Origin: a virus
IMG/VR virus record: IMGVR_UViG_3300045988_073070
Direction: 5' to 3' (one strand)
DNA: 64,000 bases
Under the pieces are notes generated by a model that did not search any database, was not told where the DNA came from, and saw only the letters and a list, made by a program, of their open reading frames with translations. A program made the position numbers and the translations under genes. Positions 20,701 to 63,578 of this stretch are shown piece by piece. Each line of letters begins with the position of its first letter. Position 1 is the first letter of the stretch.

Positions 20701-21351
20701 ATGACGATGGAGAAAAAACAAAAAATTTCAGAAACTTTGTACCATAGATACGAGTATCTTGCAAAGAAATATGCAAGCCGTATTTATTCATACGAACAAT
20801 TATCATACGAGTTCGATGATTTGGTGCAGGAGTTCCGAATAAAGATATTCACGTCAATAAAGAGCTACGGAAAGCGTTGGTTAAAATATCGGAAAGAAGG
20901 TTATGCGAAACCTGTGCCCTTGAAATATTATCTTGAAGCTGCTTGTGCTAATAAAATGAGAGACTTCATGAAATATATAACAAGGGAAAATTACAAAGTA
21001 AGGATTGACGAAATCAATTATGACTTTGGGGTGGAAATGGATTCCGAGATTATTCCAGAGCTTAACAAGTTCGTCATTAACGGAATAGATTTATTGGAAG
21101 GATTAACGGGAAAGGAGAGAGCAATATTCAGTTTGTATCTCCGTGGGCATAGCTCAAAAATTCTTACCAAAGTTTATTTTAACAACGCCAAAGAGAAGGC
21201 AAAACGAAAAGAAATTTTGGACAGTGGTGACGAGCCGTTTGGAGTAGCAGATATAATAGAAATGCAATGTAACTTCTTAATCAAAAAGTATGGTAGTGAA
21301 TTGCAGCAACTCCGTAGGACTTTCGCAACTTACAACTTTGATGAAGAGTAA
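20701..21351 (+). CDS. divergent sigma-70-family-like protein (candidate phage sigma factor 1)
   Basis: Region-2-like 'DDLVQEFRIKIF...PLKYYLEAACANKMRDFMKYI'. Region-4-like 'LTGKERAIFSLYLRGHSSKIL'. It is the first gene downstream of promoter A. Confidence 0.55.
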   Translation: MTMEKKQKISETLYHRYEYLAKKYASRIYSYEQLSYEFDDLVQEFRIKIFTSIKSYGKRWLKYRKEGYAKPVPLKYYLEAACANKMRDFMKYITRENYKVRIDEINYDFGVEMDSEIIPELNKFVINGIDLLEGLTGKERAIFSLYLRGHSSKILTKVYFNNAKEKAKRKEILDSGDEPFGVADIIEMQCNFLIKKYGSELQQLRRTFATYNFDEE

Positions 21352-21396: not shown

Positions 21397-22740
21397 ATGG
21401 CAACTAAATTGACCGCCAATGTGGCAAAGAGAGTTAAAGCATTAGGAATTAATGCAACAACTGACGAGGCAGCACGCCCAAAACTTCTGGAAATTCTGGA
21501 AGAGAATGGAATTGAGCAGATGGACGATGAGGACATCACAACTCTGGTAGAAATCGCAGAATCTTTCGTGGACGCAGATGCGGACGGGGATGATGAAGGA
21601 GACGAAGAAGCGGAAAACGATGCTTTGGCTGAAGAAGTTGAAGAGGAAGAAAAACCGAAAAAGGGAGCAAAGAAAGCTACCAAGAAAGCCGAGCCTGAAC
21701 CCGAAGAAGAAGATGAGGACGAGGAAGAAGAAAGCGATGATGAGGAAGAATCTGACGAGGATTCCGAAGAAGGCGATGAGCTTGACGACATGGACAGAGG
21801 TGAGTTGAAAGACTACATCAAAGAAAACGAATTGGAAATCACCGTGAAGAAATCTTGGAGTGATGACGACATTCGTGAAAAAATCCGTGAAGCTATGGGC
21901 GATGAAGAGGATGAGGAAGAAGATGAAGCACCTGCTCCGAAAAAGAACGCCAAAACTGCGGCTGCTCCGAAAAAAGAGGAAAAGAAAGCCGACAAAAAAG
22001 AAGCTCCGAAGGCTTCAGCCAAAAAGGAAGACAAACCGAAGGCTGACAAAAAAGCTACTGCGAAACGTGGTAACAAACTTGACCCGAAGAACAACGAAGA
22101 AGACAGAAAACATTTTGACTTCTTGAAGAAGTTGTTCCCTGAAAAAGATTACATCTATGCTTGGGTTGCAAGTGCTGGCGTAACAATCAAGTACAAAGGC
22201 AAAAACAGCAACCGTTCTCTTATCAGCCTTGAAAATTGTACGCTCAAGGGAGAAGGAAAGAATGCGGTTATGACTTGCAACCTGTACCTGCTTATCTTCA
22301 ACGGCAAATACGAAGCGTTGGAAAAAGCCGAAGTGGAATATGAAAAATGTTGGAGTGGTGCTCCGATGTTGAAAGCTATCGAAGTAAGCGAAGCCGTTGA
22401 GGTCATTGAATCTCTGAAAGACGAAATGGACAAGATGGTAGGCGGTATCGACAAGAAGTTGGGAGACAACCGCAAGAAAATGGAAGAAGGTTTGAAGAAG
22501 GACAAGAAAGCTGCCGGCAAAGCATCATCCAAGAAGGCTTCTGACGATGAAGAGGAAGAAGATGAGGACGAGGAAGAACAGCCGAAAGCAAAAGCGAAAC
22601 CTGCCGCAAAGAAGGCTTCCAAAAAGGTAGAAGTGGAAGAGGACGAAGAAGATGAGGATGACGAGGAAGAAGCACCCGCACCGAAAAAGAAAGCGACCTC
22701 AAAGACCGCTACCAAGAAAACGGTAAACAAAAAGAAATAA
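21397..22740 (+). CDS. large polyampholyte protein (poly-Asp/Glu and Lys/Ala tracts around a globular core)
   Basis: 447 aa with long D/E runs and K/A/P runs. It carries the 'DDMDRGELKDYIKENELEITVKKSWSDDDIREKIREAMG' module shared with 29120-30463. Globular core lies at about aa 235-345. Confidence 0.7.
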   Translation: MATKLTANVAKRVKALGINATTDEAARPKLLEILEENGIEQMDDEDITTLVEIAESFVDADADGDDEGDEEAENDALAEEVEEEEKPKKGAKKATKKAEPEPEEEDEDEEEESDDEEESDEDSEEGDELDDMDRGELKDYIKENELEITVKKSWSDDDIREKIREAMGDEEDEEEDEAPAPKKNAKTAAAPKKEEKKADKKEAPKASAKKEDKPKADKKATAKRGNKLDPKNNEEDRKHFDFLKKLFPEKDYIYAWVASAGVTIKYKGKNSNRSLISLENCTLKGEGKNAVMTCNLYLLIFNGKYEALEKAEVEYEKCWSGAPMLKAIEVSEAVEVIESLKDEMDKMVGGIDKKLGDNRKKMEEGLKKDKKAAGKASSKKASDDEEEEDEDEEEQPKAKAKPAAKKASKKVEVEEDEEDEDDEEEAPAPKKKATSKTATKKTVNKKK

Positions 22741-22882: not shown

Positions 22883-24082
22883 ATGGAAATTCCGAAAAAC
22901 AATTGCTTTTTTCCCGATTATGGAGTGGCGAAAGTAGAAACGTTTGGGATGTTGTACCCTGTAATTAATGATTACATCTTAACCAACAAACAAAAAGAAG
23001 AAAGCCGAGCAGGAGATGTAAAGGAACTGCTGGACGTCAAAACAATCATAACCAATCCTTATCAACGTTGCGTTGGCGGTTATGGTAGAGACATCAATGT
23101 ATTCTTTCTTCTTGCCGAAGCTATGTGGATAGCTGTTGGAAGAAAAGATGTAGAGTTTTTGGAAATATTCAATTCACGTATGAAGGACTTCAGTGATGAC
23201 GGAAAGACTTTCCACGCACCATACGGATTCCGATTGCGTCATTGGGGTATTCGTACCGAAGACAAATATGAAAGCGGAGTTAATGCCGCTCAAGGATATG
23301 ACCAAGTAGCAGATGCAATACGGCTCTTGTCCGAGAATCATAACACACGTCAGGTAGTTATGGCAATATGGAATCCGAGTTTTGACTTGGGAGCGAAAAG
23401 CAAGGACATTCCTTGTAACGACCTTGTGATGTTGAAGATTCGTGATGGTAAGATGGTCACCACAATTCAGAATCGGAGTAATGACCTTCATTGGGGATTG
23501 CCGACAAATATATTCCAATTCTCTTTCTTGACCGAGATTATGGCGACTTGTCTTGGTATCGAATTGGGAACACAAACACACAACTCTCAAAGTCTTCATA
23601 TTTATGATTGGAACGGTACGGCAAAGAAGATGCAAGAAATCTTCAAGGCTTCGGGAACGGGGCATTCACTTTATGAAGCTACGCCAGCCGAAGCGAAACC
23701 GATGGACTTTGCTTTCAATCATGAGGTTGCAATTAACCGTCTCCGTGAAGTAGATTCACATTTGAATATCGTTATCGAAAATCTTCTCAGGATAAAGAAT
23801 GGAGAAGATGAGATACAAGACGAAATTAAGCAGCTACAAGACTTTTCAACCTTCTTCTTTAATACTTACCAGCTCCTGAAAATATACGTGCTCTACAAGC
23901 ATAAAAACAAGCTGGCTAAAACGGATATTGAAAAGGATGCTATTCGCAAAACAGCGATAGCCGAAATTGAACTGTTGGAAGCCGAAGGAGCAAAAGATTG
24001 GGACATGGCAATACTTGCAAAGAACTTCTTTCACGCAAGGTTAAGTAAACCAATGAAGCATAAATATCTTGGGAAGCTATGA
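22883..24082 (+). CDS. thymidylate synthase (ThyA) family enzyme, divergent, with C-terminal extension
   Basis: Aligns by eye to E. coli ThyA: 'FHAPYGFRLRHW' (GPVYGKQWRAW), 'RQVVMAIWNP' (RRIIVSAWN), 'IPCNDLVMLKIRDGKMVTTIQNRSNDLHWGLPTNIFQF' ([38 protein letters not shown]) and 'LHIYDWN' (THLYSNH). At 399 aa it is longer than canonical ThyA. Confidence 0.8.
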   Translation: MEIPKNNCFFPDYGVAKVETFGMLYPVINDYILTNKQKEESRAGDVKELLDVKTIITNPYQRCVGGYGRDINVFFLLAEAMWIAVGRKDVEFLEIFNSRMKDFSDDGKTFHAPYGFRLRHWGIRTEDKYESGVNAAQGYDQVADAIRLLSENHNTRQVVMAIWNPSFDLGAKSKDIPCNDLVMLKIRDGKMVTTIQNRSNDLHWGLPTNIFQFSFLTEIMATCLGIELGTQTHNSQSLHIYDWNGTAKKMQEIFKASGTGHSLYEATPAEAKPMDFAFNHEVAINRLREVDSHLNIVIENLLRIKNGEDEIQDEIKQLQDFSTFFFNTYQLLKIYVLYKHKNKLAKTDIEKDAIRKTAIAEIELLEAEGAKDWDMAILAKNFFHARLSKPMKHKYLGKL

Positions 24083-27000
24083 CCGAAAGTTTACAAAAAT
24101 GGATTGAAGAAAATCATTTGGTAATATCAGAATCGTCTTTGAATGGTTCTGATATTATCTCTATTGAAGGCATGGGAACATTCTTATACCTTCACCCGTT
24201 TGACGGGAAAATAATTGACGAAGATTTTGGCTTTATATTATCCGATGAAGAATTTGATATGTTGGATGAGGCGAAAGTGAACTTCATTCTATTTGAGTTT
24301 GGTCAAAAATTCTATTATTCGGGAATAAAGAAAACCAAAAACCGCTACAACGAATTAATCTTCAAACCTCAATTCAATGACTTCAAATATCTTGGAGTAA
24401 CAAGCGAGGAATTTATAATGGACTTTTCTCACTTGGGCGTTCATTCGGAGTACGAAATATTGAATGGCTCTGGCGGTTGTGAGGTATGGGCAAAGAAAGC
24501 TAAATTCACTGGCGTTAAGGCTCTTGGAATATGCGACCGAAATACTTTGGCTGGAGCTTTATCATTCCAGAGCTTTTGCGATAAGTATGGCGTGAAATCG
24601 GTTATCGGAGAAACCATAACCGTTGCCAAGGACTATGATGCTGAAAAAGAGAATCAAGAAACCTTTGAACTGAAAGCCTACATATTGAACTACGAGGGGT
24701 GGAAAAACCTTTTGTTGATTAATAAGGCTATGAACGTAGATTACAACGGATTCATTCCAGACAATGAATTGTATAAGCGAGGAAAGGGATTGGCGTTGGT
24801 CATACCCAAAGAATCGGAGTTCAATTACATTAAGGATGAAAAGAAGGAAGTTATCAAGCTCATAGCAAAGTATAAGAAGCATTTTACAAGAGTTTATTAT
24901 CAGATAGACACCGTTGAGTACGTTTCGGATTCTTTATTCAAGAAGCACTTGGAAAACATTGATACATATATCTGCGAATATAAGAAATATGTCAAACCAA
25001 TTCTCATAAATGATTCCTACTATCTTGACCGTGAAATGCACGAGTTGAAAGGAGTTCTGAACAAGGTATTAGGAAAAGCAGCACCCGAAGCATTGAACCA
25101 ATATTTCAAGAGTTGTCGAGAAACGTTTGATGAATATGCCGATTGGCTTGACGAGGTTGAACCGTTATTCCAGACAATCATAGAAGGTATTGAAAATGCC
25201 AACCGATTAGCAGACCGAGTTGACTTCAAGATTCCTTCGGGAGAAAGAAAGCTGCCTCACTTCGAGGTTGATGACCCAGTAGCACTGTTCTTCGATATGT
25301 TGGAGAAAGGAGTTCAAGAACGTCTTTCACATCTTCCAAAGAAAGAGTTTGAAGTGTATATGAAACGCTTGGAAATCGAATGTAATGTAATTGTACCGAA
25401 TGACTTGGTTGATTACTTTATGATTCTTTGGGATATAATCAATTGGTGTAAAAAGAATGGTATAATGGTAGGCACTGGACGTGGTTCGGTTTGCGGTAGT
25501 CTTGTCGCTTATTGTTTACACATTACAGATGTTGACCCATTGAAATACGGATTGATGTTTGAACGTTTCTTGAACGAAACACGTGTATCGGGAGAGCGAG
25601 CAAAGTCAGCCGATAGTATGCCCGATATTGATGTGGACTTTCCAACGGAACACCGAGATGCGGTGAAGAACTATATCAAGGATAAATATGGGTATGATTA
25701 CACTTGTTCTATCGGAACGTACACCCGAATGAAACTCAAGACTTGCTTGAAGGACTTCGCCAAAGTAAAGGGTTTGCCGTTCGATGTAATGAATAAACTC
25801 ACGAAGGATATTGACGACCAAATTGAATACACTTGGGGAGACTTAATTGAATACGCAAGTAAATCGAAAGCCTTGTTCAAGTTCGTTCAGGAGAATCCTG
25901 ATATTGTTCATTTGACGAAATACGGCATGTTACAATGCAAGGCTGCTTCGGTTCACCCTTCTGCTGCGATTATAGTTCCAAAGCATACGGTTGATGGAAC
26001 AAACCGAGAAATTGATATTTGGGAATGGATGCCCGTTAAGAAAATTGATGGCGTTCTTGTATCGGAGTGGGAAGGTAAATACATAGACAAGTCTGGATTC
26101 TTGAAAGAAGATATTTTGGGACTTAATCAGCTTGATAAGTTCAAGAGTATGGAGATATTGATTCAGAAGAACTACGGGAAAAAGATTGATTGGAATCAGA
26201 TTCCTTTGGACGATGAAGAAACATTCAAATATTTCAAGAGAGGTTGGAATGAGGATGTATTCCAATTTGGTACACAAGGCTTGATGAATTATAGCCGACA
26301 AGTGAAACCTGATACTTTGGCGCAACTAATAGCCATGACGGCTCTATTCCGACCTGGCCCAATGGAGCTTAATGCACACTCAGATTTTGCCGATATTAAG
26401 AACGGAAAGAAGAAGCCAACATACGACTTCGGAATGGAAGAGATAACTGGGGAAACCTTTGGATTATACGTCTATCAAGAGCAAATCATGAAGGGTGTAG
26501 TTGTGGGCGGTTTAACCGAAGTTGAATCAGACATTCTCCGTACTACTATCAAAAAGAAAGACGTCAAGACACTATCATCATATGGCGAAAAATTCAAAGA
26601 AGGATATTCAAAATTATTGGAGAAAAACGGCATAGAGAATCCGAAGGAATATGCGGAGAAGGTATGGGCAAAATTGCTTGCTTTCTCTGGATATGGTTTC
26701 AATAAATCTCATGCTGCGGCTTATTCCATAATGTCCTATTGGAGCCAATATATGAAAGTTAATTATCCGTTGGAGTTTTGGACAACTTCTTTGCAATATG
26801 CCAAAGAGGGTGAAGTGCCATACCGATTAGCGGAGTTAAAGAAAACAGGCGTTGAAATCGAAATACGACCGCCAGATGTTAATTTCTCCGAGCAAACATT
26901 CACTTGTGACCCGAAAGAACAACGCATCTTCTTCAGTTTAACAAAGATTAAGGATGTTGGTGAAAAGGTAGTTCCATATATCATGGCTGAACGTGAGAAG

Positions 27001-27618
27001 GGTGGAAGATTCTTTTCATTGGAAGAGTTCGTTGAAAGAGTTCCGTCAAAGGTAAACAAGAAAATCATAGAGAGGTTAATTGTTGCGGGAGCTTTTGATA
27101 TTGTTGAAAATGTAAAAAATCCGAGAGATAGAAAGAAGTTGTTGCAATGGTATCTTGATTATAAGAAAGCCGAAATGCCGAAAGATTATCAAGTGCCCGA
27201 AAGTGAAACAAATTCATTTTGGGTATTCGAGCAAAAACGTTTGACGGGATTTGGTGAAGTAGATTATGAGACAATGATTCGGGATGCTATTCCAAATAAA
27301 AGAGTGGCAAAGTTATACGTTAATGACTTTGAGTTCTCCAATACGAAGGAAGGCAAAGAAGCCACAATTGCAGGCAAGTTAATATACTACCAAGAACGTA
27401 GCATCAAGAACGGAACAATGGTCAGCGTTAATATAGACTGTAACAATACTATCATACCCGTAACACTTTGGCCAGATGCGGTTGAGAGACTTCCTGAAAA
27501 TATATCGGAGTATAAAAACCGAGTTGTGGCAATATCTGGACGGGTCAAGAAAGATAAGTTCAAAAACCAAAAAGTTCTCTATTCAGATGATAGAACAAAA
27601 ATTTATATAATATCGTAA
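24079..27618 (+). CDS. dnaE: DNA polymerase III alpha subunit (DnaE-type, PHP domain + palm/fingers + OB)
   Basis: PHP 'HLGVHSEYEILNGSGG' and 'LGICDRNTLAG'. Palm 'GTGRGSVCGSLVAYCLHITDVDP' and 'PDIDVDF'. Also 'LYVYQEQIM' and 'FNKSHAAAYS'. 1179 aa. Confidence 0.95.
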   Translation: MTESLQKWIEENHLVISESSLNGSDIISIEGMGTFLYLHPFDGKIIDEDFGFILSDEEFDMLDEAKVNFILFEFGQKFYYSGIKKTKNRYNELIFKPQFNDFKYLGVTSEEFIMDFSHLGVHSEYEILNGSGGCEVWAKKAKFTGVKALGICDRNTLAGALSFQSFCDKYGVKSVIGETITVAKDYDAEKENQETFELKAYILNYEGWKNLLLINKAMNVDYNGFIPDNELYKRGKGLALVIPKESEFNYIKDEKKEVIKLIAKYKKHFTRVYYQIDTVEYVSDSLFKKHLENIDTYICEYKKYVKPILINDSYYLDREMHELKGVLNKVLGKAAPEALNQYFKSCRETFDEYADWLDEVEPLFQTIIEGIENANRLADRVDFKIPSGERKLPHFEVDDPVALFFDMLEKGVQERLSHLPKKEFEVYMKRLEIECNVIVPNDLVDYFMILWDIINWCKKNGIMVGTGRGSVCGSLVAYCLHITDVDPLKYGLMFERFLNETRVSGERAKSADSMPDIDVDFPTEHRDAVKNYIKDKYGYDYTCSIGTYTRMKLKTCLKDFAKVKGLPFDVMNKLTKDIDDQIEYTWGDLIEYASKSKALFKFVQENPDIVHLTKYGMLQCKAASVHPSAAIIVPKHTVDGTNREIDIWEWMPVKKIDGVLVSEWEGKYIDKSGFLKEDILGLNQLDKFKSMEILIQKNYGKKIDWNQIPLDDEETFKYFKRGWNEDVFQFGTQGLMNYSRQVKPDTLAQLIAMTALFRPGPMELNAHSDFADIKNGKKKPTYDFGMEEITGETFGLYVYQEQIMKGVVVGGLTEVESDILRTTIKKKDVKTLSSYGEKFKEGYSKLLEKNGIENPKEYAEKVWAKLLAFSGYGFNKSHAAAYSIMSYWSQYMKVNYPLEFWTTSLQYAKEGEVPYRLAELKKTGVEIEIRPPDVNFSEQTFTCDPKEQRIFFSLTKIKDVGEKVVPYIMAEREKGGRFFSLEEFVERVPSKVNKKIIERLIVAGAFDIVENVKNPRDRKKLLQWYLDYKKAEMPKDYQVPESETNSFWVFEQKRLTGFGEVDYETMIRDAIPNKRVAKLYVNDFEFSNTKEGKEATIAGKLIYYQERSIKNGTMVSVNIDCNNTIIPVTLWPDAVERLPENISEYKNRVVAISGRVKKDKFKNQKVLYSDDRTKIYIIS

Positions 27619-27628
27619 ATCAAATTGT

Positions 27629-28270
27629 ATGTTAAGCAAAATTATTTTAGGCAAGTACCTGCAACGACTTGACAACATCAAGCAATGGCAGGAAATGGAC
27701 GTTTTCAAGGAAGAAAGCGTGAGTCAACATTCGTATAAAGATTCAATTTTTGCGAGAGTATTATTGGAAGATATATTCGGCAACAATCAAAGTCCGAAGG
27801 TAGTTCAGTTCAAATTAGATGTAGTTACAAGAACACTTCTTCACGACTGGGATGAAGCCTTGATTCTACGAGACATGTCTCACGAGACCAAATACAATCC
27901 TTACAACGGAGAGGAAATCAGAAGGTGCTTAAATGCCCTTTCCAATCATATTGCGTTGAATGAGTTCCGAGAGGTTGACGAGGATTCTTGCGACACGGAT
28001 TCGTCACGTATGATGTGGGGAATGATTTGCGCTTGTCCAGAGCCAGTAAAGAGTTTTGCTAAACTATGTGATTGGATTGCGTTATTCTTTTATATGCAAA
28101 GGGAAAAGCATCTGGGCAATAAGGACTTGGAGAAATCTTGGAACATTGCGGCAAGTAAATTTCCCGAAGCGATTGACAATGTAATAAATGTGTTGAAGGG
28201 ATATTTCCCGAACGAGAAATTGAACTTTGATGAATTGTATAACTTAAAAACAATTTTTGAAGATGAGTAA
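27629..28270 (+). CDS. HD-domain phosphohydrolase, YfbR-like 5'-deoxynucleotidase family
   Basis: 'ESVSQHSYKDSIFA' (compare ENVAEHS) and 'LLHDWDEALILRDMSHE' (compare LLHDasE..tGD). Preceded by the 18-mer ATCGTAAATCAAATTGTA. Confidence 0.7.
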   Translation: MLSKIILGKYLQRLDNIKQWQEMDVFKEESVSQHSYKDSIFARVLLEDIFGNNQSPKVVQFKLDVVTRTLLHDWDEALILRDMSHETKYNPYNGEEIRRCLNALSNHIALNEFREVDEDSCDTDSSRMMWGMICACPEPVKSFAKLCDWIALFFYMQREKHLGNKDLEKSWNIAASKFPEAIDNVINVLKGYFPNEKLNFDELYNLKTIFEDE

Positions 28271-28565
28271 ACAGGAACAGGGTAAAGAGATGACCAAAGA
28301 AAGTATCAATGGCATCTTTGATGGCATGACTGATACGTTGTTGAAGAAGAATGCCGACTACAAAGGAGCGAGTTTTGACTTGGGTTTGAACGGGAATATG
28401 GTTCATATTTGGGACAAAGTTAGAAGATACAGAAGTATGGTGGAGAATCAGAATCACGGAATCACGCCAAACTTTGAAGGTATCGAAGACACTTTGAAAG
28501 ATATTATTGGCTATGCCGTTATTGGCTTGCATATCTTGAAAAAGGAAAACGAAGAAAAGGAGTAA
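28263..28565 (+). CDS. DUF1599-like (nucleotide-modification-associated domain 1-like) small protein
   Basis: 'KKNADYKGASF...HIWDKVRRYRSM...EDTLKDIIGYAVIGLHIL' follows the DUF1599 pattern (K..DYG.a....i.dK..Ri..l....E...D.i.Y.i.al) as I recall it. I used the ATG at 28263; the track start at 28257 is a TTG. Confidence 0.5.
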   Translation: MSKQEQGKEMTKESINGIFDGMTDTLLKKNADYKGASFDLGLNGNMVHIWDKVRRYRSMVENQNHGITPNFEGIEDTLKDIIGYAVIGLHILKKENEEKE

Positions 28566-28572
28566 CATCAAT

Positions 28573-29094
28573 ATGGAAAAGAAAGTAATTACCATTGGCG
28601 GTCAAACCTACGTGTTAAGGTTTGATGACTTTGACGAAGATGTTGATATTGATTCTTTGTTAAAGATAGACTATTCCAATTTAATCGGAGAGCTTATCAC
28701 CTTCCCAGTCATTGTAAACCGTTTTGGTCAATTGCTTGCGGAAGCCGAAAGTCAAGTTGCTCTTGCTAAATTAAATTTGGAAGTAACGGAAGCCAAACTC
28801 AAAGAATCAATGCGAGTTAAATTGGCAGACCGTAACGGGAAAGCTCCGAGCGTTGACGCTGTAAATTCTGCTGTTACGTTGGAGAAGGCATATCAGGCAA
28901 TGCGTAGGAATTTGATTGAGAGACAAAAGACAAGAGACTATATGAATTCAATCTTTTGGTCAGCCAAAGATAAGAGCGAAAAGTTGGATAAATTGTCTTT
29001 GACTATTCAGCCGAATGATTTGCCCGATTCGGTTATCGAAGGTAGAGTGAACAACGTTCTTATAAAGAGAACAAAGAAATTAATTGGAGATTAA
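28573..29094 (+). CDS. hypothetical coiled-coil protein (possible UvsY-like recombination mediator, positional)
   Basis: 173-aa ORF directly upstream of the SSB and UvsX-like genes. Only loose resemblance to T4 UvsY. Confidence 0.55.
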   Translation: MEKKVITIGGQTYVLRFDDFDEDVDIDSLLKIDYSNLIGELITFPVIVNRFGQLLAEAESQVALAKLNLEVTEAKLKESMRVKLADRNGKAPSVDAVNSAVTLEKAYQAMRRNLIERQKTRDYMNSIFWSAKDKSEKLDKLSLTIQPNDLPDSVIEGRVNNVLIKRTKKLIGD

Positions 29095-29119
29095 AATAAT
29101 TTTACAAATTCAAAAGATT

Positions 29120-30463
29120 ATGGCTGTAAAGAAAACAGAAAAGAAAGGTGGCGCAGATTTGAGAGCGCAACTCAGACCGACTTCAATCAAGAAGTTGAAG
29201 AAGGTTGTCGATGAAGACAATGAAATGGTAGGTGCTCAAAGTAATGAGTATCTCAACCTTGAGGATGGTAAAACGCTCAAGATTCGCATTTTCCCTGCAC
29301 ACCCTGGTCAAGAAAACTTCTATGTAGCAAAGAAATGTTACTGGTTGACCGTAGAAGGAAATGACGGAGAGCCGAGACGCACGACCGTTCTTGATTCCGT
29401 AGTTCATGGTGGAACAGAGAAAGACTTGTGTGCCGAGTTCATCAAGTACGCCAAAAAGAAATGGGCAAAGGATTCCGAGAAAATGGAGTGCTTCAGCGGT
29501 CAGGATTCGTTGAGCCCGCAATACACCTGGTTGTGCTATGCTGATAAGGTAGTAGCCGATGAAGAACTGCGTGCGAAGCTCTGGGAGTTCAAGAAAATGG
29601 TAAGGGATGCGATGAACAAATTGGCGTTCTCCGAAGATGAGGATGAACCAATTGAAGTTGACCCGTTCACTGACCCAGACGAAGGACTTCCAATCATGGT
29701 TAAATACATGAAGAAGCCGAACAAAAAGAAAGGCGAAAACTACTATGAGGTATCATTCCCCAAAAAGGTAACGGCAAGACCGTTGAGCGATGAGGAAATT
29801 GAATATTTCATGGGATTGAAACCGCTTTCTGAAGTTATCCCGACTTATGCGATGCGAGACTTTGAACGCGCTTTGGAAGGCTTGCAGAACTTTGACGAAG
29901 AACACGACCTTGAAATGTTTGAAGACGAGGGTTGGTTGGAAATCGTTGAGGAAGTAAAAGCTCAGTATGATGCTGAAGATGACGAGGAAGAAGAAAAGCC
30001 TAAAAAGAAAACTTCCAAGAAGGTAACTAAAAAAGCCAAAGACGTGGAAGAAGATGAGGATGACTCTGACGATTCGGATGATGAAGAGGAAGAAGAAAAA
30101 CCGAAGAAGAAATCAGCACCCGTCAAAGGCAAAAAGAAACCTGAACCAGAGGAAGAAGATGACGATGAGGAAGCGGACGAGGATGAAGAAGAATCAGATG
30201 ATGAGGACGATTCAGACGAAGCCGAAGATGACGGATTGGATGATATGGACAGAACGGAGTTGAAGAAGTATATCAAAGACAACGGTTTGGAAGTATCGGT
30301 CAAGAAGTCAATGTCAGACGATGACCTGCGTGAAGCTATCCGAGAAGCCATGGATGATTCCGAAGGAGACGATGAAGCGGATGAGGACGAAGATGACGAG
30401 GAAGAAGAAAAGCCCAAGTCAAAAGTCACAATGAAAGACATTCGCAAAAAGTTGGGTAAATAA
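29120..30463 (+). CDS. gp32-like single-stranded DNA-binding protein with very long acidic C-terminal tail
   Basis: The blocks 'GKTLKIRIFPAHPG', 'WEFKKMVRDAMNKLA' and 'DPFTDPDEGLPIMVKY' parallel T4 gp32 'GQAVIRFLPS', 'YRFGKKIWDKINAMIA' and 'VDVTCPWEGANFVLKV'. The C-terminal ~170 aa are poly-D/E and poly-K. I used the ATG at 29120. Confidence 0.6.
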   Translation: MAVKKTEKKGGADLRAQLRPTSIKKLKKVVDEDNEMVGAQSNEYLNLEDGKTLKIRIFPAHPGQENFYVAKKCYWLTVEGNDGEPRRTTVLDSVVHGGTEKDLCAEFIKYAKKKWAKDSEKMECFSGQDSLSPQYTWLCYADKVVADEELRAKLWEFKKMVRDAMNKLAFSEDEDEPIEVDPFTDPDEGLPIMVKYMKKPNKKKGENYYEVSFPKKVTARPLSDEEIEYFMGLKPLSEVIPTYAMRDFERALEGLQNFDEEHDLEMFEDEGWLEIVEEVKAQYDAEDDEEEEKPKKKTSKKVTKKAKDVEEDEDDSDDSDDEEEEEKPKKKSAPVKGKKKPEPEEEDDDEEADEDEEESDDEDDSDEAEDDGLDDMDRTELKKYIKDNGLEVSVKKSMSDDDLREAIREAMDDSEGDDEADEDEDDEEEEKPKSKVTMKDIRKKLGK

Positions 30464-45379: not shown

Positions 45380-45868
45380 ATGGAGCAAGAAATAGCAGCA
45401 TTGTATGAACGTTTGTTACGTCAAGCCAAGTTCTACTATCCGAGAAGTACGGATGACGCATATGACCTTTGTAATGATACGATGGTAAAGATGCTAACTA
45501 ACCAAGACAAATTCCAAGAAGGTACAAACTTATACGGTTGGGCGTGTATGATTATGCGCAATCTCTTTATCAACGATTATCGAAGGACTTCCAGACAAGG
45601 CTTTGTAATGGAAAGCGAACAAGAAGGTGCGGATGTATTTGGACGGCTTGAACTCTTTGCTCCTGATACGGACGATTATTCAAGAGAATTGGACATACGG
45701 GAAGCAATTGATGCACTACCAGAAAACGAGCGTGTTTGTATTAACTATTTGATTTGCGGTTATTCCTACGAACGAATGGCAGAGATATTTGAAGTACCAA
45801 TCGGAACGGTCAAAAGCCGTATTCATTTAGCAAGAAAGAAGTTACAAAAAGTCTTGACGAGATATTAA
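45380..45868 (+). CDS. ECF-type sigma-70 family RNA polymerase sigma factor
   Basis: Region 2: 'AYDLCNDTMVKML...FQEGTNLYGWACMIMRNLFINDYRR'. Region 4: 'LPENERVCINYLICGYSYERMAEIFEVPIGTVKSRIHLARKKL'. Confidence 0.9.
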   Translation: MEQEIAALYERLLRQAKFYYPRSTDDAYDLCNDTMVKMLTNQDKFQEGTNLYGWACMIMRNLFINDYRRTSRQGFVMESEQEGADVFGRLELFAPDTDDYSRELDIREAIDALPENERVCINYLICGYSYERMAEIFEVPIGTVKSRIHLARKKLQKVLTRY

Positions 45869-50206: not shown

Positions 50207-50656
50207 ATGACCAGAATAAATAGTGCTATTTCAGTAAGGTGTTTGACAGATGAACATTTACTTGCCGAGCATAGAGAGATTAAGAGACTACCAGCTTGTT
50301 ACCTCAAAGCAAAAACTTCGGGAGCTTTGAAAAGAATACCGAAGGAGTTCAAATTGGGAACTGGACATGTTACATTCTTTCTTGATAAATTCGCATTCAC
50401 TTATACGAGATACAAAGCTATTCATACTGAATGCTTGCGTAGAGGTTTTCAAGTTACCGATTATTCAGATTTATGGAGAGCAGTTGAACCTACTTCACAA
50501 TGGAAGTCCTACGAGCCTACGAAGGAAGAACTTGAGCTACTTATACAACGTATTACAGAGCGAATACAAGGCAGTAGCAAGACCTTCTTTCACTATGATG
50601 GGAAAGCTATCACTAAGGGTGAAGCAATCGAAATATTAAATTGTAAAACAAATTGA
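50207..50656 (+). CDS. denV: pyrimidine-dimer DNA glycosylase (T4 endonuclease V family)
   Basis: Near-colinear with T4 EndoV: 'MTRIN', 'DEHLLAEHREIKRLP' (DQHLMAEYRELPRV), 'GTGHVTFFLDKFAF' (GAGHVTFFYDKLEF) and 'ECLRRGF' (ECLKRGF). Confidence 0.9.
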   Translation: MTRINSAISVRCLTDEHLLAEHREIKRLPACYLKAKTSGALKRIPKEFKLGTGHVTFFLDKFAFTYTRYKAIHTECLRRGFQVTDYSDLWRAVEPTSQWKSYEPTKEELELLIQRITERIQGSSKTFFHYDGKAITKGEAIEILNCKTN

Positions 50657-50659
50657 ATT

Positions 50660-51244
50660 ATGTTAATAAACAACAACCGTTTGGCCATACAAGAAGCATT
50701 TATGTCTGGCAAGATAAAAGCTATATGCGGCTATCCAGGCATAGGCAAGACCTATCTAACAAATCAAGATTCAAGGTTTGTAGATGGATGGTTATCGGAA
50801 CATCTTTACATAGACAAAGCAAAAGGCATACGCAATCCCGACTTTCCGTCAAACTATATTCGCACCGTTTCAGATATAATCAAGCAAGGAAAGATTGTTG
50901 TAACAGCAATGTCCGAAGAAGCAAGAGATGTATTCAATATGCTTGATATGCCATTCGTGGTTATATATCCCAACGCTTCGGAGAAAGACCGATATTTCAA
51001 CATATACGATACCCGTCCAGACGTTCGGGAATGGATAAGCCTGAATAAACGGGTGTGGGATGATAAGATAAAGAGGATACAGGAAATGAGGGTGCCCATA
51101 GGGTGCTATAAGGATGAAATACCAAAGGGAATGAATCTCACCGAGTATCTAACTCAACTGGGAGTGTTAAGCCTTGTAAAAGTGCCCGAATATGCCTATA
51201 TTGAAACAACGCAAAGTTATCAAGAACAAATAATACAATTATGA
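50660..51244 (+). CDS. P-loop NTPase / kinase-like protein
   Basis: Walker A 'ICGYPGIGKTYL'. 194 aa, a size typical of nucleotide or nucleoside kinases. Confidence 0.6.
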   Translation: MLINNNRLAIQEAFMSGKIKAICGYPGIGKTYLTNQDSRFVDGWLSEHLYIDKAKGIRNPDFPSNYIRTVSDIIKQGKIVVTAMSEEARDVFNMLDMPFVVIYPNASEKDRYFNIYDTRPDVREWISLNKRVWDDKIKRIQEMRVPIGCYKDEIPKGMNLTEYLTQLGVLSLVKVPEYAYIETTQSYQEQIIQL

Positions 51245-56773: not shown

Positions 56774-56824
56774 AGAACGCAAGTATATAGTGTTTGAATA
56801 TTGTTTAATTTAACAAATTGTAAA

Positions 56825-57130
56825 ATGAAAAAGTTTGAATTAGTGCAAGCAATTGCCAAGGAAACGGGTTACACCCAAGAAGTAGTAAACAACGTGGTTG
56901 ATGCAATGCAACCGATTATCGCAAACGCTTGTATCGAAGAAGGCGATGAAGTGAACCTGCCTGAGCTGGGTAAGTTCAAACGTCAGGTGTTCACGGCACG
57001 TAAAGGACGCAACCCGTTGACGGGCGAAGCTCTTGACATTCCCGAATCACACACCGTTGGCTTCAAGGCTACGACCAAGCTGAAGAAAGTTATTCAGCCG
57101 AAGAAAGCCGCAAAGAAGGGTAAAAAGTAA
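56825..57130 (+). CDS. HU/IHF-family DNA-binding protein
   Basis: 'MKKFELVQAIAKETGYTQEVVNNVVDAM...LPELGKFKRQVFTARKGRNPLTGEALDIPESHTVGFKATTKLK' is the canonical HU fold sequence, including the R-N-P arm. ATG at 56825, preceded by 'CAAATTGTAAA'. Confidence 0.9.
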   Translation: MKKFELVQAIAKETGYTQEVVNNVVDAMQPIIANACIEEGDEVNLPELGKFKRQVFTARKGRNPLTGEALDIPESHTVGFKATTKLKKVIQPKKAAKKGKK

Positions 57131-60560: not shown

Positions 60561-60581
60561 TAATTCATAATATAGTGTGGG

Positions 60582-62327: not shown

Positions 62328-62783
62328 ATGAAGAAAAGAGAAGTAAACATTATCATCAAAGGATTCGGAAAACTACCTTTGTATGCTACGGAGAAATCGG
62401 CAGGAGCAGATTTGTATGCCGCCAACGCTCAAGCAATAATATTAGAGCCTGGTCAGAGAGCTTTAATACCAACGGGAGTGTTTATTGAATTGCCCGAAGA
62501 TTCCGAAGCACAAATCAGACCAAGAAGCGGTTTGGCGGTAAAGAAAGGCATAACAGTTCTCAACGCACCTGGCACAATTGATGCTGACTATCAAGGAGAG
62601 GTTGGAGTGCCTTTGATAAACTTGGGACAAGAAACGTTCGTTGTTCAAAGGGGTGAAAGGATTGCCCAAATGGTTTTGAACGGTGATGGCGGATTATTCC
62701 AAGGAGAATGGAAGGAAGTAAAAGACTTTGAACGTGATTCCGAAAGAGGTGCTGGCGGCTTCGGTCATACAGGAATGAAGTAA
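62328..62783 (+). CDS. dut: dUTP diphosphatase (trimeric dUTPase)
   Basis: All five motifs are present: 'AGADLYA', 'RPRSGLA', '[12 protein letters not shown]', 'GERIAQMV' and '[10 protein letters not shown]'. Confidence 0.95.
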
Positions 62784-63022
62784 TGGAACAGTTTAGACAA
62801 TTTACCAACGGCAAAGGCTTATTTATCGGGGTTGACTTCGGTAGAGGTAAAGACTTTGCCGTTGAAACTCAAATACAAAAGCAACCCGATGGTAGCTTGA
62901 AGATATTATCAAGTAATATCATTGGACGTTCGGCAGATATGAGCGAAGAAAGAAAACAACAAATTTGTAATAGATATGAAAGACTTTGCGAAAATGAAGC
63001 CATTGAGCAAAAATCAACTTGA
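62783..63022 (+). CDS. hypothetical small protein
   Basis: 79-aa ORF with TAATG overlap to dut. Confidence 0.5.
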   Translation: MEQFRQFTNGKGLFIGVDFGRGKDFAVETQIQKQPDGSLKILSSNIIGRSADMSEERKQQICNRYERLCENEAIEQKST

Positions 63023-63578
63023 CGACCTTACTGACGGATTGGTAAATGCTATGCGTTATTCCAACCCAGAATTTGAATATCCAGAGTATGACGGAGCGAA
63101 GCCAGACGATGGTGTTCCAGCAGAATGGTTTTATCCAATACATAATGGAACAAATTCGTTCTCCGAACTTACAGCGATACACATGTATGTTACGCAAGAA
63201 GCTACTTTTGAGGATATAGGAGAGTTGATGTTGGGAATTGGTATGACCGAAATGAAGCATTACGACAAACTTTCCGACTTCATAAAGAAATTGGGCGGCA
63301 AGATTGACCAACGCTTCAATAATTCGGGCGTTACCGTAGGAAAAGACGCAGTTGAGGCTTTGACTATTGCTATCGGAGCTGAAAAGGAAACAATTGCGTT
63401 CTATGAAAAGATTCAAACAAGGTTAAAGGAAGTAACGGAAACCAAAACAGTCAAGATAGCTTTTCAGCTTACTTCAAAACTTATAGCCGATGAGGAAGTT
63501 CATTTGGAGTTATTGAAAGAAAGATTAAGACTTTTGGCGGACGAAGAAACCTACAAAAGCGTAATTGATGAAGATTGA
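62976..63578 (+). CDS. ferritin-like / rubrerythrin-like di-metal four-helix-bundle protein
   Basis: Two E...ExxH halves: 'VTQEATFEDIGELMLGIGMTEMKHYD' and 'GAEKETIAFYEKI...ADEEVHLELL'. The start (62976 or 62994) is uncertain. Confidence 0.6.
   Translation: MKDFAKMKPLSKNQLDDLTDGLVNAMRYSNPEFEYPEYDGAKPDDGVPAEWFYPIHNGTNSFSELTAIHMYVTQEATFEDIGELMLGIGMTEMKHYDKLSDFIKKLGGKIDQRFNNSGVTVGKDAVEALTIAIGAEKETIAFYEKIQTRLKEVTETKTVKIAFQLTSKLIADEEVHLELLKERLRLLADEETYKSVIDED

Follow-up and report, generated by a model that had tools for sequence, protein, structure and literature searches.

Thymidylate synthase (ThyA) oxidises its folate cofactor and needs dihydrofolate reductase (DHFR), whereas the hydroxymethylases of the same superfamily do not, and phage proteins of the type of SPO1 gp29 have been set apart as 'TS4' from the true phage and bacterial thymidylate synthases (PMC4528723). 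SPO1 gp29 is cited as a biochemically characterised dUMP hydroxymethylase (Wilhelm & Ruger 1992, cited in PMC8989533). Phages with 5-hydroxymethyluracil (hmU) in their DNA empty the thymidine pool by inducing a dTMPase and a dTTPase activity (PMC8989533). The hydroxymethylase of phage SH-Ab 15599 has been used experimentally, and the gene adjoining it encodes a proven dTTPase/dUTPase (PMC13458397). Here we analyse a comparable locus in a 64,000-nucleotide stretch of virus DNA (IMG/VR record IMGVR_UViG_3300045988_073070, called the window in what follows), where a gene for a ThyA-like protein of 399 aa (22883-24082, plus strand) directly precedes that of a DnaE replicase. The original prediction for this locus, made from the letters alone, was that the protein is of the dUMP-hydroxymethylase type and not a plain ThyA, and that it could feed 5-hydroxymethyldeoxyuridine (5-hmdU) or a derivative into the DNA. 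Every computational test that we ran (relatives, residues, score cutoffs, DHFR, and a Pplase1-like gene in near-identical genomes) backs the first part of that proposal.

The described systems surround the hydroxymethylase with different partners. In the Ackermannviridae ViI and SH-Ab 15599, the pathway comprises the hydroxymethylase, the dTTPase/dUTPase, a 5-hmdU DNA kinase (5-HMUDK) together with an aGPT-Pplase of clade 2 (Pplase2), plus a clade-1 enzyme (Pplase1, gp160). In SP10, the modification genes are clustered: gp186 is a fusion of a kinase and a Pplase1 domain, gp185 is a radical SAM protein, and Table 3 of Lee et al. 2018 (PMC5889632) gives gp218 under the name 'Kinase2'. In Rhodoferax phage P26218, a gp29-type hydroxymethylase (gp16) is directly followed by a YfbR-like HD protein (gp17). 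SPO1 has no Pplase gene, and in this it differs from the near-identical strains of the phage studied here.

Family and active site of the ThyA-like protein

When the ThyA-like protein was compared by tblastn with 50,697 phage records, the top matches were SPO1, SP8, SP82G, CampHawk, CP-51, JL, Shanette and SP10, with 39-46% identity in the catalytic core (approximately residues 40-245). A metagenomic 'pyrimidine hmase' was also among them, and several of the matched records carry a dUMP hydroxymethylase annotation. The nearest characterised relatives are SPO1 gp29 (41% identity to residues 42-270), SP10 gp188 (40% identity) and the SH-Ab 15599 hydroxymethylase. Among the PHROG profiles, that of the gp29 family (PHROG 5131) scored best, with 246 bits (1e-72) over residues 24-362; SPO1 gp29 itself matches this profile at 2.5e-136 and P26218 gp16 at 5.6e-132. 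The second-best profile was PHROG 3676, the family of the SH-Ab 15599 enzyme (163 bits, 2.5e-47), and the general ThyA profile (PHROG 160) reached only 115 bits (7.8e-33), less than half of the gp29-family score. None of the seven NCBIfam equivalog models for thymidylate synthase attained its cutoff (22-78 bits against cutoffs of 108-427), the best one giving 77.9 bits against 174.55 and the others 22-70 bits, and the Pfam Thymidylat_synt match (PF00303, 3.9e-24) covers only residues 76-253. A sequence search of the PDB found no structure of a gp29-type enzyme.

The protein was then aligned with E. coli ThyA, the reference sequence having been checked to be identical to PDB 1aob. Its motifs IPCN (with Cys178 and Asn179), NRSND, GLPTNIF (with Asn209) and LHIYDWN start at residues 176, 197, 205 and 238, respectively, and the alignment bears out the predicted correspondences: C146 equals C178, N177 equals N209, H207/Y209 equal H239/Y241, and H147 of the PCH motif is replaced by N179. 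The latter change had been read as a mark of special divergence, but PCN is ordinary for gp29-type hydroxymethylases. The superfamily residues R21, E58, Y94, R126, C146, R166, S167, D169, H207 and Y209 (E. coli numbering) are all intact, and the ThyA fold, the catalytic Cys and the dUMP-binding R21, R166, S167, D169, N177, H207 and Y209 are present. In ThyA, W80, H147, R127 and the C-terminal lid ending in I264 are linked to folate positioning and the hydride-transfer step. Precisely these features are missing in the phage protein: K stands at position 80 (G in SPO1 gp29), Q at 127 and N at 147 (both as in gp29), and the lid is replaced. Also as in gp29, L143 is changed to D and Q165 to N. The complete pattern (PCN, D143, N165, Q127, no W80, N177) is common to the ThyA-like protein, SPO1 gp29 and P26218 gp16, the last being 33% identical over 303 aa. 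Chryseobacterium phage MA9V-3, whose DnaE is related, has a ThyA that retains the ThyA C-terminus and, at all these positions, the ThyA residues.

Both E. coli ThyA and T4 gp42 have the fold core, catalytic Cys, phosphate-binding Arg, Y94 and H207/Y209 in common with the phage protein. Compared with the former, it lacks W80, H147, R127, the C-terminal lid and a DHFR partner; compared with the latter (246 against 399 aa), it carries Asn and not Asp at the specificity position (D179 of T4 gp42, equivalent to E. coli N177). The residue at this position decides between uracil and cytosine specificity, and the change from Asn to Asp switches it (PMC8670742). The uracil-specifying Asn is retained here as Asn209 and is Asn in all family members examined.

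The original prediction had also pointed to a long C-terminus in place of the normal ThyA end. Length and replacement are confirmed, since 158 residues follow the Tyr of the HxY motif against 55 in E. coli ThyA, but this is not a sign of unusual divergence. A long tail instead of the ThyA lid is the norm for the gp29-type class, because SPO1 gp29 (383 aa), SP10 gp188 (382 aa), P26218 gp16 (349 aa) and the SH-Ab enzyme (375 aa) all have one, with 124-154 residues after HxY.

The likeness to SPO1 gp29 extends to the PCN, FSDDG and NRSNDLHWG motifs of the core, to Asn at position 177, to the length of the tail (154 aa after HxY against approximately 155) and to a gene position adjoining replication genes. 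The two differ in that the tails have no detectable homology, that SPO1 belongs to the Herelleviridae and has a Gram-positive host, and that the DNA polymerase gene of SPO1 is a different, intron-containing one, whereas here the hydroxymethylase is coupled to DnaE. Family membership and residue pattern are established by these comparisons. On the basis of four independent lines, namely nearest relatives, profiles, residues and the folate logic considered below, we believe that the ThyA-like protein is very probably an SPO1-gp29-type dUMP hydroxymethylase and not a thymidylate synthase, and from the same comparisons we infer that its product would be 5-hmdUMP.

The replicase block and the nucleotide-pool genes

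The ATG of dnaE (24079-27618, plus strand) overlaps the TGA stop of the hydroxymethylase gene, forming the expected ATGA within GCTATGACC. Its product of 1179 aa is a DnaE-type (Pol III alpha) replicative polymerase with matches to Pfam PHP, DNA_pol3_alpha, DNA_pol3_finger and HHH_6. Downstream on the same strand lie the genes of a YfbR-like HD 5'-deoxynucleotidase (27629-28270) and of a DUF1599 protein (28263-28565); the latter starts at ATG 28263, or alternatively at TTG 28257, with an 8-nt overlap with the HD stop. All four ORFs were present as predicted, and Pfam supports the naming of the last two with scores well outside what chance would give. Judged from this arrangement, the hydroxymethylase gene is co-transcribed and translationally coupled with the replicase gene, and DnaE is the presumed consumer of 5-hmdUTP. 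The gene content and synteny of the block are established: in IMG/VR relatives we found the conserved order sigma-like gene, acidic protein, hydroxymethylase, DnaE, HD, DUF1599 and a 173-aa protein, and the synteny holds down to 58% hydroxymethylase identity. The most distant syntenic relative (L128) gave no match with the DUF1599 query.

For the supply of dUMP, the window encodes a trimeric dUTPase (62328-62783, plus strand), whose prediction stood up well (PHROG 135, 3.8e-51; NCBIfam dUTP diphosphatase, 4.3e-54, above cutoff). It would provide dUMP and prevent dUTP from entering the DNA. No DHFR, ThyX or second ThyA was found in the precomputed Pfam matches over overlapping stretches, partly from close relatives, that jointly cover the ~98-kb genome to which the window belongs.

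The HD protein matches the Pfam YfbR-like family (PF12917, 1.5e-11, 44.8 bits against a cutoff of 25.9). Compared with E. coli YfbR (reference sequence verified against PDB 2paq), it keeps the metal ligands H33, H68, D69 and D137, the catalytic E72, the base-stacking W19 and also D77, and only R18 is changed, to Q; all the retained residues are conserved in four family orthologues too. A phmmer search of the PDB with the HD protein did not find YfbR. From its residues, the protein is plausibly an active 5'-deoxynucleotidase, and it may reasonably be supposed to deplete dTMP. The gp16-gp17 pair of P26218 offers the same neighbourhood, with a gp29-type hydroxymethylase directly followed by a YfbR-like HD protein that has the same catalytic residues, although that phage has an unrelated, podovirus-like genome of 36 kb and a different DNA polymerase, and the two HD proteins are dissimilar by pairwise BLAST. 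ViI and SH-Ab 15599 are similar in that a nucleotide-pool enzyme gene adjoins the hydroxymethylase, which belongs to the same superfamily branch (PHROG 3676, 2.5e-47). The SH-Ab neighbour is, however, a dTTPase of MazG/dUTPase fold and not a YfbR-type HD protein.

The DUF1599 protein is a clear member of its family (PF07659, 3.6e-7, 30.8 bits against a cutoff of 25; PHROG 1485, 2.3e-17), but as evidence for a non-canonical pyrimidine, which the original prediction made of it, it proved to be weak, because crAss-like phages of Bacteroides, Gordonia phages and many temperate phages of Firmicutes have homologues as well, and in archaeal viruses these adjoin ThyX and dUTPase. DUF1599 tracks general pyrimidine nucleotide metabolism and not base replacement. 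The AF2 model is a small helical bundle (pLDDT 81). A Foldseek search of the PDB with this model gave no significant match, with MazG, iMazG and DCTPP1 recurring among the weak ones, and comparisons with the SH-Ab gp18 dTTPase and a Cellulophaga phage MazG by BLAST and hhalign were negative. The protein may be MazG-like.

Put together, these genes suggest the following pathway. The dUTPase would provide dUMP, and Cys178 of the hydroxymethylase would attack C6 of dUMP and take the methylene from methylenetetrahydrofolate, as in thymidylate synthase. Water, and not hydride, would then be added to the exocyclic methylene, yielding 5-hmdUMP and tetrahydrofolate, and with tetrahydrofolate as the co-product no DHFR would be needed. 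A host kinase, or possibly the gp218-like P-loop protein described below, would raise 5-hmdUMP to 5-hmdUTP, while the YfbR-like nucleotidase, and perhaps the DUF1599 protein, would drain the thymidine nucleotides. DnaE would insert 5-hmdU instead of T. Part of the hmU might then be converted on the polymer to a hypermodified thymine or to T, with the involvement of a Pplase1-like protein.

As a separate observation, two paralogous, extremely acidic and Lys-rich proteins flank the hydroxymethylase-DnaE-HD-DUF1599 block (21397-22740, 447 aa, and 29084-30463, 459 aa). They are 44% identical over 191 aa and show a motif of approximately 45 aa, 'LDDMDR.ELK.YIK.N.LE..VKKS.SDDD.RE.IREAM'; their PHROG matches are weak and named 'SSB'. 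In several relatives (among L123 and L125-L128), approximately 2.5 kb of extra sequence is found in the 5' part of dnaE, after the hydroxymethylase.

A clade-1 aGPT-Pplase and the possible fate of 5-hmdU

Positions 18149-19306 of L008, a strain that shares 99% identity with the window, encode a 385-aa protein with a strong match to Pfam PF18723, HMUDK_hel, the helical domain of 5-hmdU DNA kinase (1.7e-48). The gene lies approximately 6.4 kb past TerL, just before the portal gene, and in the near-identical genomes it is approximately 46 kb downstream. A Walker A motif is absent from the protein. Its homologues are the C-terminal half of SP10 gp186 (E 4e-22; Foldseek TM 0.67), ViI-like Ackermannviridae proteins (24-27% identity, with 95% of the length covered) and, from a Bacillus phage, a protein with the annotation 'aGPT-pyrophosphorylase clade 1'. 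Its AF2 model (pLDDT 84, pTM 0.84) had no significant Foldseek neighbour in the PDB, including the clade-2 entry 8Z2M (Pplase2), and phmmer against PDB sequences gave nothing meaningful. In BFVD, the neighbours of the model were SP10 gp186, a PhiW-14 protein, a phiRSL1 protein and a 'Pplase1' entry (E 6e-11 to 2e-3), the SP10 gp186, PhiW-14 and 'Pplase1' matches lying between 1e-5 and 6e-11. Clade-2 enzymes have an essential Cys and a nearby Glu. Cys356-Glu357 is invariant across 26 members of the Pplase1-like family and was equated by eye with the 'WCCEM' segment near the C-terminus of SP10 gp186. Since the kinase domain of gp186 is active alone (Lee et al. 2021), the C-terminal domain is not merely a part of the kinase and would have a function of its own. 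The gene was found in 80 IMG/VR contigs at 54-91% identity and in six of the eight family contigs that were recovered with the hydroxymethylase. Because a clade-1 aGPT-Pplase gene is present in the near-identical genomes, some 5-hmdU is probably processed after replication, to a hypermodified thymine or back to T, as is the case in SP10, PhiW-14 and ViI.

We then searched for the usual partners of such an enzyme by phmmer with ViI gp243, gp247 and gp226 and SP10 gp186, gp185 and gp218 as queries, against the ORFs of the window and of flanking loci (L008, L010, L014 and L095); SH-Ab gp7 and gp18 were used against the window, L008 and L010. From the SP10 set, gp188, the C-terminal half of gp186 (gp186C) and gp218 have homologues here. 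The differences are that Pplase1 stands alone here, with no homologue of the gp186 N-terminal kinase (gp186N) found, and that the genes are scattered over about 46 kb and not clustered. With regard to ViI and SH-Ab 15599, a Pplase1 homologue is common to both sides (gp160), and homologues of Pplase2 (ViI gp247, SH-Ab gp7), of the gp243 kinase and of the PLP (pyridoxal phosphate) decarboxylase were not found. No glycosyltransferase appeared in the Pfam listings. With no such kinase, clade-2 transferase or PLP enzyme, the post-replicative step would have to proceed without its usual partners.

One of the described SP10 proteins, the radical SAM gp185, is echoed in close relatives of the phage, where outside the window there is a gene for a 318-aa radical SAM plus SPASM protein with CX3CX2C at residue 21 (L014:18650-19606 and L095:10001-10957). 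It lies within the structural module, 7.5-9.4 kb downstream of the Pplase1-like gene. SP10 gp185 as a phmmer query did not match it, although it was in the searched ORFs, and its best family matches are peptide or cofactor maturases, all far below cutoffs.

The homologue of gp218 is the P-loop protein at 50660-51244 (plus strand), for which the original prediction was right about the P-loop (Walker A motif GYPGIGKT), but neither a 5-hmdU DNA kinase nor a dNMP kinase can be recognised in the protein. It matches PHROG 4182 at 2e-21 (SP10 gp218 itself at 1.3e-59) and is 29% identical to gp218 (E 1e-21). By phmmer it has no similarity to the validated kinases ViI gp243 and SP10 gp186N, and it gave nothing meaningful against PDB sequences. 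A motif scan disclosed no further Walker A kinase. An assignment as 5-hmdU DNA kinase is unsupported, given that the protein is gp218-like, unlike ViI gp243 and SP10 gp186N, and of a widespread family; as a hmdUMP kinase or hmU-DNA kinase it is a weak candidate. Ending 4 nt before this gene is one for a T4 denV-like pyrimidine-dimer DNA glycosylase (50207-50656; N-terminus MTRIN..., Pfam Pyr_excise, PHROG 1183 at 8e-34). We considered it as a base-flipping partner and rejected this, ordinary UV repair being the simpler explanation because of the T4 endonuclease V N-terminus and the strong family match.

A gp29-type hydroxymethylase working in a 5-hmdU pathway is, on the whole, the probable explanation for these findings, and it is likely, with slightly less confidence, that the virion DNA carries hmU or a derivative. 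For a modification beyond hmU the chances appear to be a little under even. More tentative still is the suggestion that this family makes an undescribed thymidine modification from 5-hmdU DNA without canonical 5-HMUDK or clade-2 transferase, on which all the characterised pathways rely. Such a route would use the standalone clade-1 aGPT-Pplase, the SP10-gp218-type P-loop protein and possibly the radical SAM/SPASM enzyme, a combination that we put forward with the same reserve.

Several findings weigh against the hydroxymethylase pathway or parts of it. The characterised members of the family are all at most about 41% identical to the enzyme. A profile hidden Markov model (HMM) derived from the C-terminal 155 residues of 120 members of the family scored the tails of the reference hydroxymethylases no higher than shuffled copies used as controls, and hhalign probabilities were below 1%. 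The approximately 155-aa tail is, as far as its sequence goes, peculiar to this phage family. Two matches do cover a part of it, the PHROG envelope reaching residue 362 and the alignment of P26218 gp16 by BLAST residue 352. The HD protein is under the cutoff of the NCBIfam 5'-deoxynucleotidase equivalog (NF003009, 31.5 bits against 122; 1.4e-7) and found no match by tblastn in all phage records. There was no dCMP deaminase signature in a motif scan, and homology searches and family scans disclosed no recognisable dTTPase or dNMP kinase. The gp218-like P-loop family occurs also in phages without known hmU; T5-like phages, PBS1, phiR1-37, Staphylococcus jumbo phages and others have members of it. 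The Pplase1-like gene is seen in the 99%-identical strains (L008 and L009) and not in the window itself. Finally, the searched ORFs contained no validated-type 5-hmdU DNA kinase (ViI gp243 and the N-terminal half of SP10 gp186 had no match) and no PLP enzyme or decarboxylase, and neither the ViI gp247 and SH-Ab gp7 queries nor the precomputed Pfam matches revealed a clade-2 amino-acid:DNA transferase.

The alternative that survives best is an endpoint like that of SPO1, in which 5-hmdU wholly replaces T as the final base, and whatever roles the Pplase1-like and P-loop genes have, if any, lie elsewhere. The lack of a validated kinase, clade-2 transferase and PLP enzyme in the searched ORFs speaks for it, and so does the fact that no function has ever been demonstrated for a clade-1 Pplase, clade 2 being enough in vitro. 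Yet the Pplase1-like gene is kept at 54-91% identity in 80 family contigs with its Cys-Glu invariant, and we consider this endpoint a serious though rather unlikely competitor. A good deal less probable is that the hydroxymethylase is active but 5-hmdU is only transient, being fully reverted to thymine at the polymer level, so that packaged DNA looks canonical. Phages SP10, PhiW-14, ViI and M6 convert part of their hmU to T before packaging (PMC8989533), and the present phage has the clade-1 enzyme only, with no transferase of known donor specificity; no known phage, however, converts completely, such a cycle would bring no obvious restriction protection, and a reductase partner was not identified.

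It is very improbable that the enzyme, though divergent, is an ordinary thymidylate synthase making dTMP for canonical phage DNA. This reading can appeal to the Pfam Thymidylat_synt match, to the presence of the catalytic Cys, Asn177, R166, D169 and Y94, and to several sources that annotate homologues as 'thymidylate synthase', but it is opposed by equivalog scores far under the NCBIfam cutoffs, by the gp29 signature in place of W80, H147, R127 and the ThyA C-terminus, by a gp29-family score more than double that of the ThyA profile, and by a genome in which Pfam finds no DHFR and which has a gene for T hypermodification. A hydroxymethylase with cytosine specificity, of the kind of T4 gp42 or MilA and yielding 5-hydroxymethylcytosine DNA, is the least probable alternative, since, despite MilA CMP hydroxymethylase being among the best PDB sequence matches (6e-18) and an Asp at position 143 that is common to T4 gp42, position 177 is Asn in all family members and Asp in gp42, the alignment with gp42 shows only about 21% identity, and no glucosyltransferase, dCTPase or carbamoyltransferase was found.

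The preferred reading, a gp29-type hydroxymethylase feeding a 5-hmdU pathway, is in part already described; this is so for the class of enzyme, the pre-replicative pathway's logic and the Pplase1 domain. New are the carrier, an uncultured, recurrent human-gut phage family with a DnaE replicase; the YfbR-type HD and DUF1599 genes adjoining the hydroxymethylase; the standalone Pplase1 without canonical kinase or clade-2 transferase; and the observation that public records name the hydroxymethylase 'thymidylate synthase' or 'hypothetical protein', for which 'dUMP hydroxymethylase-like' would be a better annotation. If the reading is true, a phage lineage recurring in many human-gut metagenomes carries thymine-replaced DNA, and the encounter of this DNA with host restriction and other defence systems would be altered. 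A modified thymine could also alter enzymatic library preparation and nanopore sequencing of the phage DNA. A family without a clade-2 enzyme offers a simple natural setting in which to learn the role of clade-1 aGPT-Pplases and, should the undescribed route prove true, it would assign them their first catalytic role.

The phage family and other observations

The window is phage DNA with nearly all genes on the plus strand and a GC content of about 39%, and ARAGORN detected no tRNA in it. It starts with tail and baseplate genes, contains TerL at 60577, and has a replication and recombination module with a helicase, DnaB, primase, DnaE, UvsX, SbcCD, a RuvC-like resolvase, a second helicase and an exonuclease. 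It matches two public contigs, 98,487 and 98,469 bp long, at 100% identity over 12.8 and 21.2 kb, respectively, and further public contigs, L008 and L009 among them, at 99%. Because of the former two matches, we take the window to represent roughly two thirds of a genome of ~98 kb, of which metagenomes have yielded many assemblies. DAP89483.1 ('Caudoviricetes sp.') is one deposited member of the family, whose contigs measure approximately 95-125 kb and encode DnaE. In 56 sample blocks the hydroxymethylase sequence is indexed in exactly this form, and related protein clusters number more than 600.

A megablast search with 12 kb of the window against the 50,697 phage records gave no match, and the collection holds no close cultured relative. 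The closest DnaE proteins are those of Chryseobacterium, Cellulophaga, Tenacibaculum and Bacteroides phages (31-35% identity), and one DUF1599 homologue was binned with a Prevotellaceae metagenome-assembled genome; on these grounds, the host is likely from the Bacteroidota. The closest cultured phages by DnaE, Chryseobacterium phage MA9V-3 and Cellulophaga phage phi13:1, carry the 7-deazaguanine genes queE, folE and queD. The Cellulophaga phiST group has 7-deazaguanine genes too, and MA9V-3 has its canonical ThyA besides. A gp29-type hydroxymethylase was not found in MA9V-3 or the phiST group. Because MA9V-3 and phi13:1 have these other genes, the DnaE-phage lineages of Bacteroidota seem to carry differing DNA-modification modules.

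Some further genes deserve mention. Two sigma-factor-like genes lie at 20701-21351 and approximately 45380-45868, one with a weak Sigma70_r2 match and the other clearly of ECF type, and an HU-like DNA-binding protein is encoded at 56824-57129; with these the phage may redirect host transcription. Shortly after the dUTPase, and separated from it by an ORF of 79 aa, there is a gene for a ferritin/rubrerythrin-like protein of 200 aa (62976-63578), which had no PHROG or NCBIfam match. Among the relatives with mobile insertions, one (L094:1682-4438) encodes a TerL of 918 aa with an intein (Hom_end_hint).

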